The position numbers and the translations under genes are program-made. This document shows, piece by piece, positions 3,640 to 36,937 of a stretch of 64,000 nt of DNA (positions within the stretch are counted from its first letter, which is position 1; every line of letters begins with the position of its first letter). The stretch comes from Candidatus Norongarragalina meridionalis (GTDB lineage: Archaea > Micrarchaeota > Micrarchaeia > Norongarragalinales > Norongarragalinaceae), in the NCBI GenBank assembly GCA_902384935.1, contig CABMDO010000013.1, forward strand, positions 4,370 to 68,369, read 5' to 3'. The notes below the pieces were generated by a model. That model saw nothing but the letters and a program-made list of their open reading frames with translations, did no database searches and was not told where the DNA came from.

Positions 3640-3843
3640 TTGGGAAGAATGAAAGGAAAGCACACGCGGTCCGTAGCCAAGGACTTGATCGAGAAGTACC
3701 CCGGCAAGTTCTCCGACAATTTCGAGGAGAACAAGAAGCATCTCGCGGAGCTCAACATGCTCGGCGACATGAAGGACGAACGCAACAAGCTCGGCGGCGA
3801 GCTGACTACCCGCATCAAGCGCAGCAAAAGAAAGGAAGACTAA
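3640..3843 (+). CDS. rps17e: 30S ribosomal protein S17e
   Basis: 67 aa. MGRMKGKHTRSVAKDLIEKYPGKFSDNFEENKK matches the S17e N-terminal consensus (MG..R.K.vK..a..iiEkY...f..dF..NK). Confidence 0.8.
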   Translation: MGRMKGKHTRSVAKDLIEKYPGKFSDNFEENKKHLAELNMLGDMKDERNKLGGELTTRIKRSKRKED

Positions 3844-3844
3844 A

Positions 3845-4369
3845 CTACTTTTCCGCAGTCTTGCGCCGTTCGCGGTTTCCGCACACAGGGCAGACGCATT
3901 CGTCGCCCTTTATTTCCATCCAGCTCCTGCAGCGGGTGCACGCCGGCTTTATGATGCCCAGCTCGCGGTCCGCTATGGTGACGTGAATGCCGAGCGGCGA
4001 CACTTCCTTGACGCGCGCCCTCACCATGTCCCCGATGCGTATGTATTCGCGGAACGTTTCGGCGTAGCCCCGCCTGACCTCGGAGATGCGCAGATAGCAG
4101 TAAGTCGAATGCGCGCCGAGGTGCGGGTTCACCGCCTCGAACTGTATGAGCGCAACCGCGTCGTAGACGTCCATCACCTTTCCGTAGACGATGTCGCCCC
4201 TCGCGAGCCCGCGCACGCCCCTGCCGTTGACGCCGACGATGCGCTTCTGGGCGTTTTCGCTTTTCGTGCCGACTATGCTGGCGTAGACGAAGTCGCCCTC
4301 CTCGTACGTGCCTTCGGCCGGAGCGAATTCCTCTATGCCGCAGACTTCATCTCCGGGTACAAGCGTCAT
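3845..4369 (-). CDS. csl4: Exosome complex RNA-binding protein Csl4 (N-domain + S1 + Zn-ribbon)
   Basis: S1-like core (GDIVYGKVMDV...) and a C-terminal 4-Cys zinc ribbon (CTRCRSW...CVCPVCG). Size 174 aa, typical of archaeal Csl4. Confidence 0.6.
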   Translation of the reverse strand: MTLVPGDEVCGIEEFAPAEGTYEEGDFVYASIVGTKSENAQKRIVGVNGRGVRGLARGDIVYGKVMDVYDAVALIQFEAVNPHLGAHSTYCYLRISEVRRGYAETFREYIRIGDMVRARVKEVSPLGIHVTIADRELGIIKPACTRCRSWMEIKGDECVCPVCGNRERRKTAEK

Positions 4370-30084: not shown

Positions 30085-30654
30085 TTAAACGTGACGCTTA
30101 GACGCGGCGGAGAGCACGTCGGACTTCGTGATTATCCCCGCGATTTTCCCGCGTTTCGTGACGAGCACGGCCTTTTCATGCATGAGAAGCGCGACAACTG
30201 CCTGCAGCGGCACCGCCTCGTCCACCTGCGGGAACGGCGGCGCCATTATCGCTGCCACTGTTTCGGAAGAGAGGTCCGCGCCCTTTTCCACCCGCGCAAG
30301 AACGTCCTCCTCGCTCAGGCTTCCTACGGCGCGCTCTCCCTCGAGCACCGGAAGCTGTGAAACGCCCTTTTTTCCCATGAGCGAAACCGCCTTTGATGCC
30401 TTCTCGTGCGGCGCGACGACGCACAGCCGCCTGCTCATCGCGTCCGACGCCTTCAAACCCGTGGCATGCTCCTTCTCGTCGAGCACGTCCAGCAGCCGCT
30501 TCACGCGCGAATACGACGCGTCGCTTGTTCCCGCCTCGAGCTTCGCGACCAGGGACTGACTCACTCCCGCCTCCTTCGCAAGCTCAGACTGCGTCATGCC
30601 CAGCACCGCGCGCCGCCTTCGTATCGCCGCAGTTTCCGCGTCCATATATTCCAA
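30085..30654 (-). CDS. HTH (XRE-type) + CBS-pair transcriptional regulator
   Basis: N-terminal HTH LGMTQSELAKEAGVSQSLVAKLE, followed by two CBS-like segments. Confidence 0.65.
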   Translation of the reverse strand: MEYMDAETAAIRRRRAVLGMTQSELAKEAGVSQSLVAKLEAGTSDASYSRVKRLLDVLDEKEHATGLKASDAMSRRLCVVAPHEKASKAVSLMGKKGVSQLPVLEGERAVGSLSEEDVLARVEKGADLSSETVAAIMAPPFPQVDEAVPLQAVVALLMHEKAVLVTKRGKIAGIITKSDVLSAASKRHV

Positions 30655-31625
30655 TCATAATAATTACGACAGAAAAATATTTATACCTTTGTAACGTGTT
30701 TAATCTATGTTTGCTCCTAATATCGGCAAAGAGTACATCGAGCCTGCTGAGCATAGCGTTTGTAAGAGCGACTGCCAAGATTTCATTCGTGACAAGTTCG
30801 GCTTGATTTCGCAGCGCGAGATGGCGCGCAGGCTAGGACTTGGAAAAACTACGGTAAACCGTTGGGCTGAAGAAATAGGTTGCAAGTTCGTTAAAAACTC
30901 TGTCGACGATGCATTCTTCGATTCCTGGTCGGAAGAATCCGCCTACGTTTTCGGTTTCATTATTTCTGATGGAAATGTTTGTTGGAATCCCCGCAAGTCG
31001 TACTGGACGCTCACGATAACCGCTTCGGAAAAGGATGTTTCCCACCTAGAAAAACTGCGTTCGTTGCTGGACTCCACAAAGCCGCTTCTTTACTCCCTGG
31101 AAACCAAGTCCTATCGTTTGATGGCGACTAACAAACGTCTATGCAAAAAACTTATGCATTTGGGCGTCTTGCCCAGAAAGTCGTTGACGGTAAGATTCCC
31201 GAAAATTCCAAAAGCATTCCTTAAGGATTTTCTGCGGGGCGTGATAGACGGAGACGGGAATGTCCGTTACGTGAAAAGAAAACGGAGCCCTTATTTCGAG
31301 ATAACGATAGCTTCGGGTTCCAAAGAATTCTGCGAGGGACTTATTGCCGCCATAAAAAGAAATTATGGAATACCTGCAAATGTTCGTAGGGCGCACGGAC
31401 ACACCTACGTAGTTCAGTATTGCTGTTCCCGCGGCGAAAAACTTGCGGAAATAATTTATTCTAACGCGACTGTATTTCTCGAAAGAAAGTACGTCGCTTT
31501 TGATGAAGCAAAGAAAAAGAGGTGTAAGCATGGCTGAAAAAAAGTTTTTCACGTCTGAGTCAGTCACCGAAGGTCACCCGGACAAAATTCCCGAATGATT
31601 TATTCGTTCGAGGATGTCTAAAATT
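30655..31625 (+). mobile_element. AT-rich island carrying a free-standing LAGLIDADG homing endonuclease gene and the disrupted 5' end of metK
   Basis: Marked drop in GC relative to the flanks. Contains the HE ORF and a 36-nt insertion in metK flanked by AAAATT direct repeats. Confidence 0.5.
30707..31537 (+). CDS. Double-motif LAGLIDADG homing endonuclease with N-terminal HTH
   Basis: Motif 1 YVFGFIISDGNV, motif 2 FLRGVIDGDGNV. N-terminal HTH (REMARRLGLGKTTVNRWAEE). AT-rich codon usage unlike its neighbours. The stop overlaps the metK ATG. Confidence 0.75.
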   Translation: MFAPNIGKEYIEPAEHSVCKSDCQDFIRDKFGLISQREMARRLGLGKTTVNRWAEEIGCKFVKNSVDDAFFDSWSEESAYVFGFIISDGNVCWNPRKSYWTLTITASEKDVSHLEKLRSLLDSTKPLLYSLETKSYRLMATNKRLCKKLMHLGVLPRKSLTVRFPKIPKAFLKDFLRGVIDGDGNVRYVKRKRSPYFEITIASGSKEFCEGLIAAIKRNYGIPANVRRAHGHTYVVQYCCSRGEKLAEIIYSNATVFLERKYVAFDEAKKKRCKHG

Positions 31626-32723
31626 TGTGACCAGGTGAGCGACGCGATACTTGATGCGATGCTGGCGAAGGACCCTGACGCGCGCGTCGCGGTGGAATGC
31701 ATGACCACCACGGGCTCGCTGATGATGGCGGGCGAAGTCACCACCAACTGTTACGTGGATATCCCGCACATCGCGCGCGAAACCTTGCGCGACATAGGCT
31801 ACACCGATCCGGAGTTCGGGCTCGACTGCAACGACTGCGGCGTCTGGACGAGCATCCACGAGCAGTCCCGCAACATCGCCGTAGGCGTCGACTCTTCGGC
31901 GAAGAAGGAACAGGGTGCGGGGGACCAGGGCATGATGTTCGGGTTCGCGTGCAACGAAACCAAGGAGCTGATGCCGCTTCCCATATCGCTCGCGCACAAG
32001 CTGACGCACCGCCTGGCGGAGGTGCGCAAGAAGAAAATCCTGGATTGGGTGCGGCCCGACGGAAAGTCGCAGGTTACCGTTGAATACGAAAATGGAAAGC
32101 CGACGCGCGTCGACGCGATAGTAATCGCGGTTCATCATAATCCTTCCGTGTCGCGCGAGAAAATAGTCGCCGACGTGATGGAGCACGTCATAAAGCCGGT
32201 TTGCGGCAATCTCGTCGACGGAAACACGAAATACTTCATCAATGCAACCGGGGTATTCGCAGTTGGCGGGCCCGAGGCGGACACGGGAGTGACGGGGCGC
32301 AAGATAATCGTGGATACTTATGGGGGAATGGGCAGGCACGGCGGAGGATGCTTCAGCGGCAAGGATCCGAGCAAAGTCGATCGCTCGGCTGCGTACGCGG
32401 CGCGCTACATCGCGAAGAACATAGTCGCGGCGGGATTGGCTGAAAAGTGCGAGGTGCAGCTTTCGTACAGCATAGGCGTCGCGGAGCCCGTGAGCGTGCG
32501 CGTGGAATGCTTCGGCACCAACAAGGTTTCCGAAGACAAGCTCTCGGAACTCATACGCAGGCACTTCCCGCTCAAGCCGGCGGACATAATCAGCCAACTG
32601 AAGCTCAAGCGGCCGATTTACCGGAAAACCGCGGCGTACGGGCACTTCGGACGCGAGGATCCCGACTTCACGTGGGAGAAAACCGACAAGGCGGAAGCGC
32701 TCAGGAAGGAAGCCGGGGTTTAG
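31530..32723 (+). CDS. metK: S-adenosylmethionine synthetase, bacterial MetK type, interrupted by an in-frame TGA at 31596-31598 (36-nt insertion); the main ORF restarts at 31614
   Basis: N-terminal exon-like piece [20 protein letters not shown] (31530-31589) matches the MetK N-terminus. After the insertion, [13 protein letters not shown]...[12 protein letters not shown]...[34 protein letters not shown] continues in the same frame. Removing 31590-31625 restores a contiguous MetK. Confidence 0.7.
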
Positions 32724-34388: not shown

Positions 34389-34481
34389 TGCGACGGCCGG
34401 GATTTGAACCCGGGTTGCGAGATATTTGCGAGATTTCGCCTCTTGGCAATCTCGCGTCCTACCAGGCTAGACTACCGTCGC
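34389..34481 (-). tRNA. tRNA-Gly (anticodon GCC) with an approximately 20-nt intron at the canonical 37/38 position
   Basis: Minus strand: acceptor GCGACGG/CCGTCGC, D arm GTCT-AGCCTGGTA-GGAC, anticodon stem CGAGA...TCTCG with loop TTGCCA | intron (about AGAGGCGAAATCTCGCAAAT) | A. 4-nt variable CAAC, T arm CCGGG-TTCAAAT-CCCGG, discriminator A, downstream T-tract. Confidence 0.7.
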
Positions 34482-35530: not shown

Positions 35531-36937
35531 TCAACCCTTTATCACGCCCATCGGGACGAAACGGGCAACTATCTTACACAATCCCGCCTTTTCAACGCTG
35601 CGGACGACCGCGTCAACGTCCTTGTACGCCCCGCCCGCTTCTTCGGCGAGTATTTGCGGCTCCATCGACTTCACCGCCACGCCTTCGGCTTCCATTTTTT
35701 TCTGCACGTCGGTTCCGCGGAACGCGCGCAGCGCCTCGTGCCTGCTCATCGTCCGTCCCGCTCCGTGGCACGTTGAACCGAAAGTTTCCGCCGCTCCTTC
35801 GAGCCCGCACAGCAGGTAGGACGCCGTATTCATGCTGCCGGGAATAATGACCGGTTGCCCGACGTTACGGTATGCCGTCGGAATCTCCTTCCTGCCCTTC
35901 CAGAAGGCGCGCGTCGCTCCCTTGCGATGCACGCAAACCTTTTTCCCGCCGTGCTCCTCGATTTTCGCGATGTTGTGGCACACGTCGTAAACAAGCTGGA
36001 ATCCCATCGCGTCCCAAGATTTTTTCATCACCGAGGCGAAGGATTCGCGCACCCAGTGCGTCATCACCTGGCGGTTGCAGAAAGCGTAATTCACCGCGCT
36101 GTTCATCGCGCCCATGTAATTGCGGGCTTCCTCGCTGTTGAGCGGCGCGCAGCATAACTCGCGGTCTGGAAGCGAAATCTTGTACTTCTCGGCTACGCCG
36201 AGCATCGTGCGTATGTAATCGTCGCACACCTGGTGCCCGTAGCCGCGCGAACCCGAGTGGATCATCACCGTTACTTGCCCCTCGCCGGTTATCCCGAACG
36301 CTTTCGCGATGTCGGCGTCGAACACTTTATCCACGCGCTGAATCTCGACGAAGTGGTTGCCGCTTCCGAGCGTTCCGAACTGCGGTGCGCCTCTTTTTTT
36401 AGCCATGTCGCTAGCCTTCGAGAAGTCGGCGCCTTTCATGCACCCGTTTTCCTCGCAGTGCTCTATGTCCGCCGCCACGCCGTATCCTTTCTCAACCGCC
36501 CACGCCGCGCCCTGCGTCACCGCCTCGCCGAGCTGCTTCGTATCGAGCCGAATCTTGCTCTTGCTCCCCACGCCCGACGGTATGTTGCCGAAAAGCGTCT
36601 GGACGAGTTCGTGCGCGTGGGGTTTGACGTCTTCGGCTTTCAATTCCGTTCGTAACAGTCGCACGCCGCAGTTGATGTCGTATCCCACGCCGCCGGGAGA
36701 TATCACGCCGGCTTCCATGCCGAACGCCGCGACGCCTCCTATCGGAAAGCCGTATCCCTCATGCCCGTCTGGCATCACCAGCGCGGCTCCGACTATGCCC
36801 GGAAGCTTCGAAACGTTTTCCGCCTGCCCTATGGTGCGGTCGCCCTTCATTTTTTCGAAAAGCGCCTCCTCGGCGTAGACGCGTACGCTCCCGTCGGTAG
36901 TTTCGAATACGGCGTCGCGCTTTTTCACGAATTCCAA
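35531..36937 (-). CDS. rtcB: RNA-splicing ligase RtcB (tRNA ligase)
   Basis: 468 aa. Conserved GYDINCG, metal-binding His residues and HGAGR motif (CHGAGRTMSRHEA). Confidence 0.85.
   Translation of the reverse strand: MEFVKKRDAVFETTDGSVRVYAEEALFEKMKGDRTIGQAENVSKLPGIVGAALVMPDGHEGYGFPIGGVAAFGMEAGVISPGGVGYDINCGVRLLRTELKAEDVKPHAHELVQTLFGNIPSGVGSKSKIRLDTKQLGEAVTQGAAWAVEKGYGVAADIEHCEENGCMKGADFSKASDMAKKRGAPQFGTLGSGNHFVEIQRVDKVFDADIAKAFGITGEGQVTVMIHSGSRGYGHQVCDDYIRTMLGVAEKYKISLPDRELCCAPLNSEEARNYMGAMNSAVNYAFCNRQVMTHWVRESFASVMKKSWDAMGFQLVYDVCHNIAKIEEHGGKKVCVHRKGATRAFWKGRKEIPTAYRNVGQPVIIPGSMNTASYLLCGLEGAAETFGSTCHGAGRTMSRHEALRAFRGTDVQKKMEAEGVAVKSMEPQILAEEAGGAYKDVDAVVRSVEKAGLCKIVARFVPMGVIKG

Follow-up and report, generated by a model that had tools for sequence, protein, structure and literature searches.

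The locus described here poses the question of how a gene whose reading frame is broken by an in-frame stop codon can remain under purifying selection, and of what the nuclease gene that overlaps its start codon has to do with the break. The gene is metK, encoding a bacterial-type S-adenosylmethionine (SAM) synthetase, and it lies in a stretch of 64,000 nucleotides (nt), hereafter the window, from Candidatus Norongarragalina meridionalis, a DPANN archaeon (Micrarchaeota). A gene for a LAGLIDADG homing endonuclease runs into the start of metK, and an insert of 36 nt lies a short way inside metK itself. On balance we favor the reading, drawn from comparative sequence analysis, that the endonuclease is a free-standing enzyme targeting metK and that the insert is an mRNA mini-intron which would confer target-site immunity.

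The endonuclease gene and its recognizable parts are as follows.

30707..31537, + strand: gene for a free-standing monomeric double-LAGLIDADG homing endonuclease, 276 amino acids (open reading frame [ORF], Pfam, profile, and structure model)
30764..30874, + strand: N-terminal three-helix domain resembling a helix-turn-helix (HTH), residues 20-56 (AF2 helices at 20-30, 36-43, and 47-56)
30944..30979, + strand: LAGLIDADG motif 1 with the catalytic Asp88 (D88 and G89 invariant in 21 sequences)
31229..31264, + strand: LAGLIDADG motif 2 with the catalytic Asp183 (D183 and G184 invariant in 21 sequences), within the Pfam LAGLIDADG_3 match

Motif 1 reads YVFGFIISDGNV (residues 80-91, YVFGFIISD88GNV) and motif 2 reads FLRGVIDGDGNV (residues 175-186, FLRGVIDGD183GNV). 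Both were recovered in an alignment of 21 homologues, which had a mean column identity of 62%, and each ends in an acidic residue followed by Gly. Pfam analysis matched residues 173-234 to LAGLIDADG_3 (E 1.1e-10) and also returned Hom_end. A profile built from the 21 homologues and searched against the PDB matched I-Tsp061I (2dch; E 2.4e-9) over both domains. The AF2 model (pLDDT 87, pTM 0.80) was analyzed with Foldseek, and the best matches were again I-Tsp061I (E 5e-11, TMt 0.72) and I-DmoI (TMt 0.68-0.70); the model and the 2dch profile together revealed two pseudo-symmetric alpha-beta-beta-alpha-beta-beta-alpha domains. The N-terminal region carries a conserved SQRExA..LG.GKTTVNRW signature in the same alignment, and its Pfam match to HTH_3 was weak (E 0.009, below threshold). 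No intein domain was found in the protein by Pfam, and the ORF, with a start and a stop codon of its own, lies between genes. A look-up of the protein by its exact sequence returned no contig. Its last six codons and stop overlie the metK ribosome-binding site and start codon.

The composition of the gene is unusual for the window. The G+C content (GC) is 0.458 for the endonuclease ORF, 0.23 for the 52-nt spacer in front of it (30655-30706), and 0.36 for the 36-nt insert. The upstream gene has a GC of 0.626 and the remainder of metK one of 0.60, and 831-nt segments over the 64 kb average 0.582 (standard deviation, 0.027). The ORF is the lowest-GC 831-nt segment of all, about 5 standard deviations under the mean, and its GC at third codon positions is 0.50, compared with 0.78 in the second exon of metK. 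An earlier note on this DNA, made from the letters alone, had proposed an AT-rich island encoding a free-standing, 276-residue double-LAGLIDADG protein outside any rRNA or tRNA intron or intein. The nonuniform GC profile, the domain and fold matches, and the position of the gene bear this out, and the predicted three-helix bundle is consistent with the N-terminal HTH that the note had named. The endonuclease gene was AT-richer than metK in 27/27 loci of the family; since low GC is thus a trait of the whole family, it does not by itself prove a recent arrival.

The boundaries of the element were defined by comparison with relatives that lack it, using the following landmarks.

30085..30654, - strand: HTH_3 plus CBS-domain gene (HTH-CBS), the divergently transcribed left neighbor of metK (Pfam HTH_3, 5.5e-12; CBS, 1.3e-17)
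30678..30689, + strand: TATA-like promoter element (AAATATTTATACCTT region), common to the window and the related locus L064; homology breaks after the element
30690..31519, + strand: ~830-nt insertion, as judged against the L064 empty site (alignments of the window with L064)
31520..31524, + strand: Shine-Dalgarno-like AGGTG of metK, common to L064, forming the right edge of the insertion

The closest homologue of the window MetK (P0122, 91% identity) is encoded at L064/L065, which has neither the endonuclease gene nor the 36-nt insert. Gene order is shared between these loci and the window (S6e, S2, HTH-CBS, metK, transglutaminase-like, GFO/IDH). As the syntenic L064 lacks both the endonuclease gene and the interruption of metK, the endonuclease gene can be described as an insertion of about 830 nt, standing in place of 16 nt of L064 (GCGGTGCTCGTCTTTT) between the metK promoter and ribosome-binding site. 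A second pair of loci gave the same picture: an 891-nt segment with the endonuclease gene in L036 corresponds to 54 nt in L044, just upstream of the metK ribosome-binding site, and the two are 82 to 85% identical on either side. Presence or absence of the gene is therefore polymorphic at a defined site in both comparisons. The HTH-CBS gene also lies upstream of metK in loci without the endonuclease gene (L064, L068, L044, L052, L054, L045, and L039) and would be the left homology arm of the empty site. Because the endonuclease ATG is only some 24 nt downstream of the TATA-like element, the endonuclease mRNA is probably leaderless.

The association with metK extends across the family. About 290 homologues (55 to 67% identity) were found in DPANN metagenomes, and in 30/30 distinct archaeal loci, drawn from Micrarchaeota, Woesearchaeota, Aenigmatarchaeota, and 'Nanoarchaeia', the gene lies directly upstream of a bacterial-type metK while the remaining neighbors vary. 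The arrangement would suit collaborative homing, with the endonuclease gene outside its presumed target gene but adjoining it: in the window, the two genes overlap at the endonuclease stop and the metK start, and 56 nt of metK precede the insert. We found no earlier description of a metK-linked LAGLIDADG gene in archaea or DPANN in the searchable literature.

Several loci retain traces of displaced metK sequence. In L001 (3937-4000), an intact orphan exon 1 of metK, closed by a stop, lies upstream of the endonuclease gene and stops 1 nt short of its ATG; downstream of the endonuclease gene is a second metK, which is complete. Remnants of the metK 5' end were detected upstream of the endonuclease gene in 11 loci (z > 4 versus shuffles); several are in frame with the endonuclease and have the common altered form EGHPxYLCD(K/N). 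Decayed EGHPxYLCDK/N copies of this kind were seen in L008, L019, L024, L025, and L028 and in the proteins P0003 and P0116. No metK 5'-end remnant was detectable in the window itself.

The endonuclease and its neighbor also have different histories. Pairwise identities of endonucleases and of MetK proteins are nearly uncorrelated (Spearman 0.12). L014 and L023 share MetK proteins that are 92% identical and endonucleases that are 59% identical, and among the endonuclease-bearing loci the window endonuclease is nearest that of L001, whereas the window MetK is nearest that of L008. The nucleotide identity of L014 and L023 steps from about 60% to about 80% at the metK start; we considered this as a sign of gene replacement and set it aside, as replacement and a faster rate are not separable there. 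Together, the empty sites, orphan copies, discordant histories, and invariant Asp-Gly pairs indicate an active or recently active mobile endonuclease whose predicted homing site is the 5' end of metK.

Two further features of the junction were noted. P0044 (330 amino acids) continues by read-through from the endonuclease into the first ~45 residues of MetK, as one fused protein, and matches both S-AdoMet_synt_N and LAGLIDADG_3 in Pfam. In the Woesearchaeota-type loci L017, L020, L023, L026, L029, L012, and L006, the 3' end of the endonuclease gene (the last ~25 nt) is a conserved AAYRTTTTGGAGG that also serves as the metK ribosome-binding site, a hint that the mobile cassette carries translation signals for metK with it.

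Within metK, the window contains two coding segments separated by the insert.

31530..31585, + strand: metK exon 1, a 19-residue N-terminal peptide; its ATG at 31530 overlaps the end of the endonuclease gene, whose stop is at 31535-37
31586..31621, + strand: mini-insert of 36 nt and putative mRNA intron of the bulge-helix-bulge type; missing as one clean block from L064
31622..32723, + strand: metK exon 2 (A plus ICDQVSD...AGV and stop), with all three Pfam S-AdoMet_synt domains

An in-frame TGA lies within the insert (31596-98), and metK resumes with ICDQVSD... in the same frame. L064 reads across the site without the 36 nt (GGAC|...|AAAATCTGCGACC); its uninterrupted candidate target region is GAAGGTCACCCGGACAAAATCTGCGACCAGG; GAAGGTCACCCGGACAAAATCTGCGACCAGGTT. 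The predicted spliced junction of the window is GGACAAA|AUUUGUGACC; by the cut rule for bulge-helix-bulge motifs, exon 2 contributes the third base (A) of the Lys codon. Owing to the AAAATT repeat at the edges, the product is unchanged whichever 36-nt frame is removed, from 31584-31619 to 31590-31625. Joined, the exons encode a 385-residue bacterial-type SAM synthetase that shares the 91% identity with P0122 given above; the NCBI annotation holds only the downstream 369-residue part (P0121). The 30-nt core of the insert occurs once in the window, and an Rfam scan found no known RNA family at the insert.

Since the first 57 nt of metK are also low in GC, they had at first seemed a possible part of the imported cassette. 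This was rejected for the window, since exon 1 is 93% identical to that of the endonuclease-free L064 and is therefore native; exon 1 may be imported in Woesearchaeota-type loci such as L001. The ratio of nonsynonymous to synonymous substitution (dN/dS) between the window metK and that of L064 is 0.06, with purifying selection on both exons, and a 12-residue peptide of exon 1 is kept with synonymous variation in all insert-bearing loci. By these measures metK is not a pseudogene, and the gene is predicted to be functional.

We compared the state of the presumed target in carriers and noncarriers of the endonuclease gene. Among the 120 closest MetK homologues, 88 have an uninterrupted GHPDK(I/L/V)CD., 22 have ADQ or ADK variants, and 10 are N-terminally truncated gene calls that prove to be insert-bearing. 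All four canonical loci whose context was examined (L064, L066, L067, and L068) are without the endonuclease gene. Conversely, a canonical uninterrupted GHPDK(I/L/V)CDQ coding sequence was found in 0/30 endonuclease-bearing loci. The target is altered there in one of three ways.

12/30 loci: mini-insert
14/30 loci: substitutions (Cys to Ala, Ser, or Met; also GHADK and AHPDK, in a motif that is otherwise invariant)
4/30 loci: single-base insertion, CCY-T-GAC, reading 'GHP-stop' and then DK(I/L/M)CD in the +1 frame

Target-site immunity would predict an altered target in all carriers. The earlier note had proposed the uninterrupted GHPDKICDQ region as a cleavage target and a comparison with relatives as the way to define the empty site. 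The empty site exists in L064/L065, its edges can be placed, and the 30 altered carriers lend the candidate target comparative support. The note had further described the abutting metK as disrupted; metK is indeed abutted, but disruption in the sense of decay did not stand, as the insert is conserved, structured, and apparently spliceable.

The four loci with the single-base insertion (L021, ~3960-3990; L024, ~1630-1660; L025, ~3800-3830; L028, ~3790-3820) are deeply diverged (Aenigmatarchaeota and others). In each, a single additional T follows the Pro codon of GHPDK and precedes the Asp codon (CAU CCY UGA CAA R), and the exon-1-like peptide ends at UGA. From their sequence, the CCY-UGA-C sites look like programmed +1 frameshift sites in the style of prfB or antizyme and may represent a second way of breaking the endonuclease target. 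To our knowledge, programmed +1 frameshift sites are rare in Archaea.

In order to characterize the insert, 19 distinct examples were gathered by a pattern scan of metagenomes and from the endonuclease loci. All 19 (29 to 40 nt) occupy the identical codon boundary, with or without an endonuclease gene upstream. L070 and L071 were later added as insert-bearing loci (21 in total). Most inserts have a length that is not divisible by three (29, 31, and 35 nt, for example), and every one has in-frame stops. The insert region of the window folds at -31.4 kcal/mol (z = -4.0), and two elements of the fold could be assigned.

31580..31619, + strand: core of the motif, a central 4-bp helix of G31580-C31583 (exon GGAC) with G31616-U31619 (intron GUCU), from the parse of sequence and fold
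31572..31632, + strand: outer exon-exon helix, GGUCAC (31572-77) with GUGACC (31627-32), 96.5% paired across 19 sequences

In the core, the 5' bulge is A31584, A31585 | A31586, and the pair A31587-U31615 closes an intron hairpin (31588-31614); the 3' cut is predicted after A31621, 2 nt beyond the 4-bp helix. The layout is common to 19/19 inserts. Exon N-G-A-Y (the last base of the Pro codon, then the Asp codon) pairs with intron R-U-C-U, three unpaired A's (the Lys codon) follow, and an A-U pair then closes a variable intron hairpin; past RUCU come N-N-A, an Ile, Val, or Met codon, and UGY GAC. The 4-bp helix, the 3-nt bulge on its 5' strand (A A|A), and the adjoining intron helix were thus recovered in every sequence. 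Cuts placed past the second unpaired nucleotide 3' of each helix strand would join GAY AA to A NNN UGY, in frame in 19/19, and the first base of exon 2 is in each case an A that completes the Lys codon.

Pairs were counted on a gap-free trimmed alignment of the 19 sequences (A6). Of all cells, 88.9% were paired, compared with 34 to 40% when the partners were slid by 1 to 3 columns. The 4-bp helix was 100% paired, with C-G in 9, U-A in 8, and U-G in 2 sequences at the Asp wobble position, and both sides had changed in 8/9 hairpin pairs. None of 500 shuffles matched the covariation score. The outer exon-exon helix shows no covariation because both of its strands are coding. In L036, L044, and L052 the insert is kept better than neighboring synonymous sites.

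Two alternative folds were rejected. In the minimum-free-energy (MFE) structure, a 5-bp helix (GGACA/UGUCU) would place the canonical cuts one out of frame; moving one A-U pair to the hairpin yields the 4-bp helix, which is in frame in 19/19. The alternative MFE fold of GAU-type inserts (a UAAA/UUUA helix) would not suit the splicing endonuclease, since its bulges lie on the wrong sides.

The window also encodes an intron-bearing tRNA, which offers a reference substrate for the splicing endonuclease, and the ligase that such splicing would call upon to join the exons.

34389..34481, - strand: tRNA-Gly(GCC) with a canonical hBHBh' intron of 20 nt at position 37/38 (Rfam tRNA, 56 bits)
35531..36937, - strand: RtcB RNA ligase, 468 amino acids (Pfam RtcB, E 9e-176)

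The tRNA gene was missed by ARAGORN. Its intron parses as H = UUGC/GCAA with bulges CA|A and AU|A, and the cut rule applied to metK reproduces it. An intron-bearing tRNA-Gly in the window implies splicing endonuclease activity.

These observations can be assembled into a model. The endonuclease gene would have inserted between the metK promoter and ribosome-binding site; such a position implies cotranscription with metK, probably as a leaderless first cistron. Its target would be the 5' coding sequence of an endonuclease-free metK, ...GGT CAC CCN GAY AAA | ATH TGY GAC CAG... (GHPDK|ICDQ). A break made there would be repaired from an endonuclease-bearing genome, with the gene copied into the recipient ('intronless homing'), and metK and the HTH-CBS/promoter side would act as homology arms; where a lineage does not share the upstream synteny, a decayed metK 5' copy upstream of the endonuclease could be the left arm. 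The window's own target would be protected, being split by the 36-nt insert exactly at the Lys19/Ile20 codon boundary. In the transcript, the tRNA-splicing endonuclease would cut the relaxed bulge-helix-bulge and RtcB would ligate the exons, restoring GAC AAA AUU UGU and full-length MetK. DNA cleavage and its site, RNA splicing and its cut positions, and the direction of change (gain versus loss) are what we infer here from sequence. The mini-intron itself could have arisen when repair of a break at the cleavage site chanced to yield a mimic of a splicing-endonuclease substrate. A more extended version is offered only tentatively: that the essential metK of DPANN archaea is in an arms race with a dedicated homing endonuclease, the target being patched by a spliced mini-intron, by a 1-nt insertion (with programmed +1 frameshifting at CCY-UGA-C), or by substitutions in the catalytic motif.

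Several observations weigh against this model. Of the exact spliced MetK proteins, seven were looked up in a collection of 15 billion proteins and 0 were found. A strict second 3-nt bulge on the 3' side with an adjoining exon-exon helix is absent: the 3' cut falls within an internal loop (2 x 7 nt), 4 nt ahead of the outer exon-exon helix. As this loop disrupts the 3' bulge, the motif fits the relaxed class only. Relaxed motifs are cut only by broad-specificity splicing endonucleases, including epsilon2 of Micrarchaeum and the L3-loop enzymes common in DPANN (PMC5829648). The 30/30 contrast in target state is not phylogenetically controlled, with carriers and canonical alleles coming from partly different clades. 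Insert and endonuclease gene are not strictly coupled, either; 12/30 carriers have the insert, 18 have other changes, and 6 insert loci have no endonuclease gene, so that immunity by insert is one option among several and the two elements are not obligatorily linked. Finally, endonuclease GC follows host GC (r = 0.85), so long-term residence is possible, and synonymous divergence (dS) between the window metK and its empty-site relative is ~1, which would also allow a long residence and fits domestication.

Domestication is accordingly the alternative that survives best, although we regard it as unlikely. On this view the HTH-LAGLIDADG gene, no longer mobile, would have settled stably beside metK and been passed down vertically with it, for example as a DNA-binding regulator of the operon, and the insert would be unrelated to it. 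Such a role would suit the N-terminal HTH-like domain, the strict linkage and operon-like overlap with metK in all loci, the strong conservation of the protein (the 62% column identity given above), its tracking of host GC, and the persistence of the gene in insert-free loci. It sits poorly with a gene that is patchily present among close relatives with clean empty sites, whose history is nearly uncoupled from that of MetK, and upstream of which lie orphan or decayed metK 5' copies. Both catalytic Asp residues are invariant, and the altered target of every carrier (GHADK, AHPDK, or the 1-nt insertion) is hard to explain without nuclease pressure.

A second alternative, to which we give rather less credence, concerns translation: ribosomes might hop, as in gene 60, from AAA-AUU to the identical site 36 nt on, or MetK might be made as two polypeptides, a ~22-residue peptide and a product starting at AUG 31614. 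The window does have AAAAUU at both edges, a stop three codons past the take-off site, and a stable hairpin, and the CCY-UGA-C sister class shows that metK may use recoding in some lineages. However, matching take-off and landing codons occur only in AAA-type inserts (8/19; the ...UCU AAA inserts of the window, L008, L040, L044, L046, L054, and similar loci) and are absent where the 3' triplet is UGA, UUA, ACA, or AUA. The features that are conserved are the exon GAY/intron RUC helix and the bulge geometry, as in splicing-endonuclease substrates. In-frame AUG or GUG codons ahead of exon 2 in many loci, and the 369-residue NCBI product, would suit two polypeptides, but these would part the catalytic GHPDK motif from the enzyme, and MetK without covalently attached GHPDK would lose catalytic residues.

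That metK is a pseudogene or recently damaged, with the 36 nt a scar left by the endonuclease or by sloppy repair and SAM drawn from another source, is very improbable: the in-frame stop, a hairpin-plus-inverted-flank shape that could (speculatively) come from fold-back repair, and the frequent host dependence of DPANN archaea can be cited for it, but the insert sits at one site in 19 deeply diverged sequences with intact downstream ORFs, its structure covaries and is better conserved than nearby synonymous sites, and exon 1 is conserved at the protein level with a dN/dS of 0.06.

We therefore return to the metK-targeting endonuclease with a mini-intron as its probable counterpart. If this is true, metK would be the second archaeal protein-coding gene known to have such an intron and the first linked to a homing endonuclease. 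In the literature searched, cbf5 was the only archaeal protein-coding gene with confirmed splicing, and a widespread metK case would show that mRNA splicing by the tRNA machinery is no one-off. It would also correct a systematic misannotation, the truncated 369-residue MetK in NCBI. From the location of the intron on the probable target of the adjacent endonuclease, one can suggest what the intron does (target-site immunity) and how such introns may originate, and a break-repair origin would be a concrete route to intron birth in protein-coding genes. Collaborative homing as described in phages would be extended to cellular archaea. The endonuclease family, with its candidate target of 25 to 30 bp well defined, is a possible meganuclease scaffold, and the CCY-UGA-C sister alleles are a rare candidate for programmed +1 frameshifting in Archaea.

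Other features of these neighborhoods were noted in passing. An HTH_3 protein with tandem CBS domains is divergent from metK in many Micrarchaeota-like genomes (L064, L068, L044, L052, L054, L045, L039, L004, and L071). CBS domains commonly bind adenosyl ligands, and one could speculate that this protein is a SAM-responsive regulator of metK. In L004 (3255-3828), a PIN-domain toxin and a small upstream ORF lie between the HTH-CBS gene and the endonuclease gene; the region upstream of metK thus accumulates other mobile modules as well. In L042 (340-2787), metK has a 5' mini-insert and in addition an intein of ~430 residues at GGGAF|C...HN|SGKD with LAGLIDADG motifs of its own (YLLGLLVGDGD and FLKGLFDTDGC), so metK in these archaea has been struck by several kinds of mobile element. 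The RtcB ortholog of L064 (7822-9459) has 545 residues and an Intein_splicing match, whereas the RtcB of the window (468 residues) is intein free. Another LAGLIDADG_3 gene lies at the end of the L064 contig. These last two observations point to an active turnover of inteins and endonuclease genes in the lineage.

The system can be compared with four that are already known. The closest relatives by fold, I-Tsp061I and I-DmoI, are likewise archaeal, monomeric LAGLIDADG enzymes with the two-motif fold and a catalytic D/E ending each motif. Unlike these rRNA-intron-encoded enzymes, the window endonuclease, which is ~20% identical to them, has an extra N-terminal HTH-like domain, is not intron encoded, and is associated with metK rather than with rRNA.

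Some free-standing homing endonuclease genes of mitochondria, for example those at Allomyces atp6 and Ophiostoma rps3, insert in protein genes and leave a duplicate of the gene end that they displace. In the metK family too, endonuclease ORFs are fused to or adjoin a decayed part of the host gene with a full copy alongside, as seen in L001 and in the in-frame GHPxYLCDK remnants. In the archaeal loci, however, it is the 5' end that is duplicated and not the 3' end, and the window is without a detectable remnant.

The cbf5 pre-mRNA intron of Crenarchaeota was the sole confirmed archaeal case as of 2009 (PMC2738675). Like it, the metK insert is tens of nucleotides long, lies in an archaeal protein-coding gene, has a relaxed bulge-helix-bulge with lineage-specific gain or loss, and would depend on broad-specificity splicing endonucleases. 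It differs in the gene (metK), the lineage (DPANN), the position (codon 19/20), and the association with a homing endonuclease; splicing of cbf5 has been shown experimentally, and that of metK is predicted.

Collaborative or trans homing is known from phages, with F-CphI beside the intron-containing psbA of cyanophage S-PM2 and T4 mobE acting with the I-TevIII intron (PMC6083498, PMC2790892). The metK locus differs from these in its cellular DPANN host, in an intron of 29 to 40 nt of the bulge-helix-bulge type that would need a host enzyme and is not a self-splicing group I intron, and in that immunity would also arise by substitutions or a 1-nt insertion; cleavage is here predicted from sequence. 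It resembles them in having a free-standing endonuclease gene beside its target gene and an ORF-less intron at or near the presumed recognition site, and, as in the phage systems, the intron would protect the allele that carries it and could hitch-hike with the endonuclease gene.

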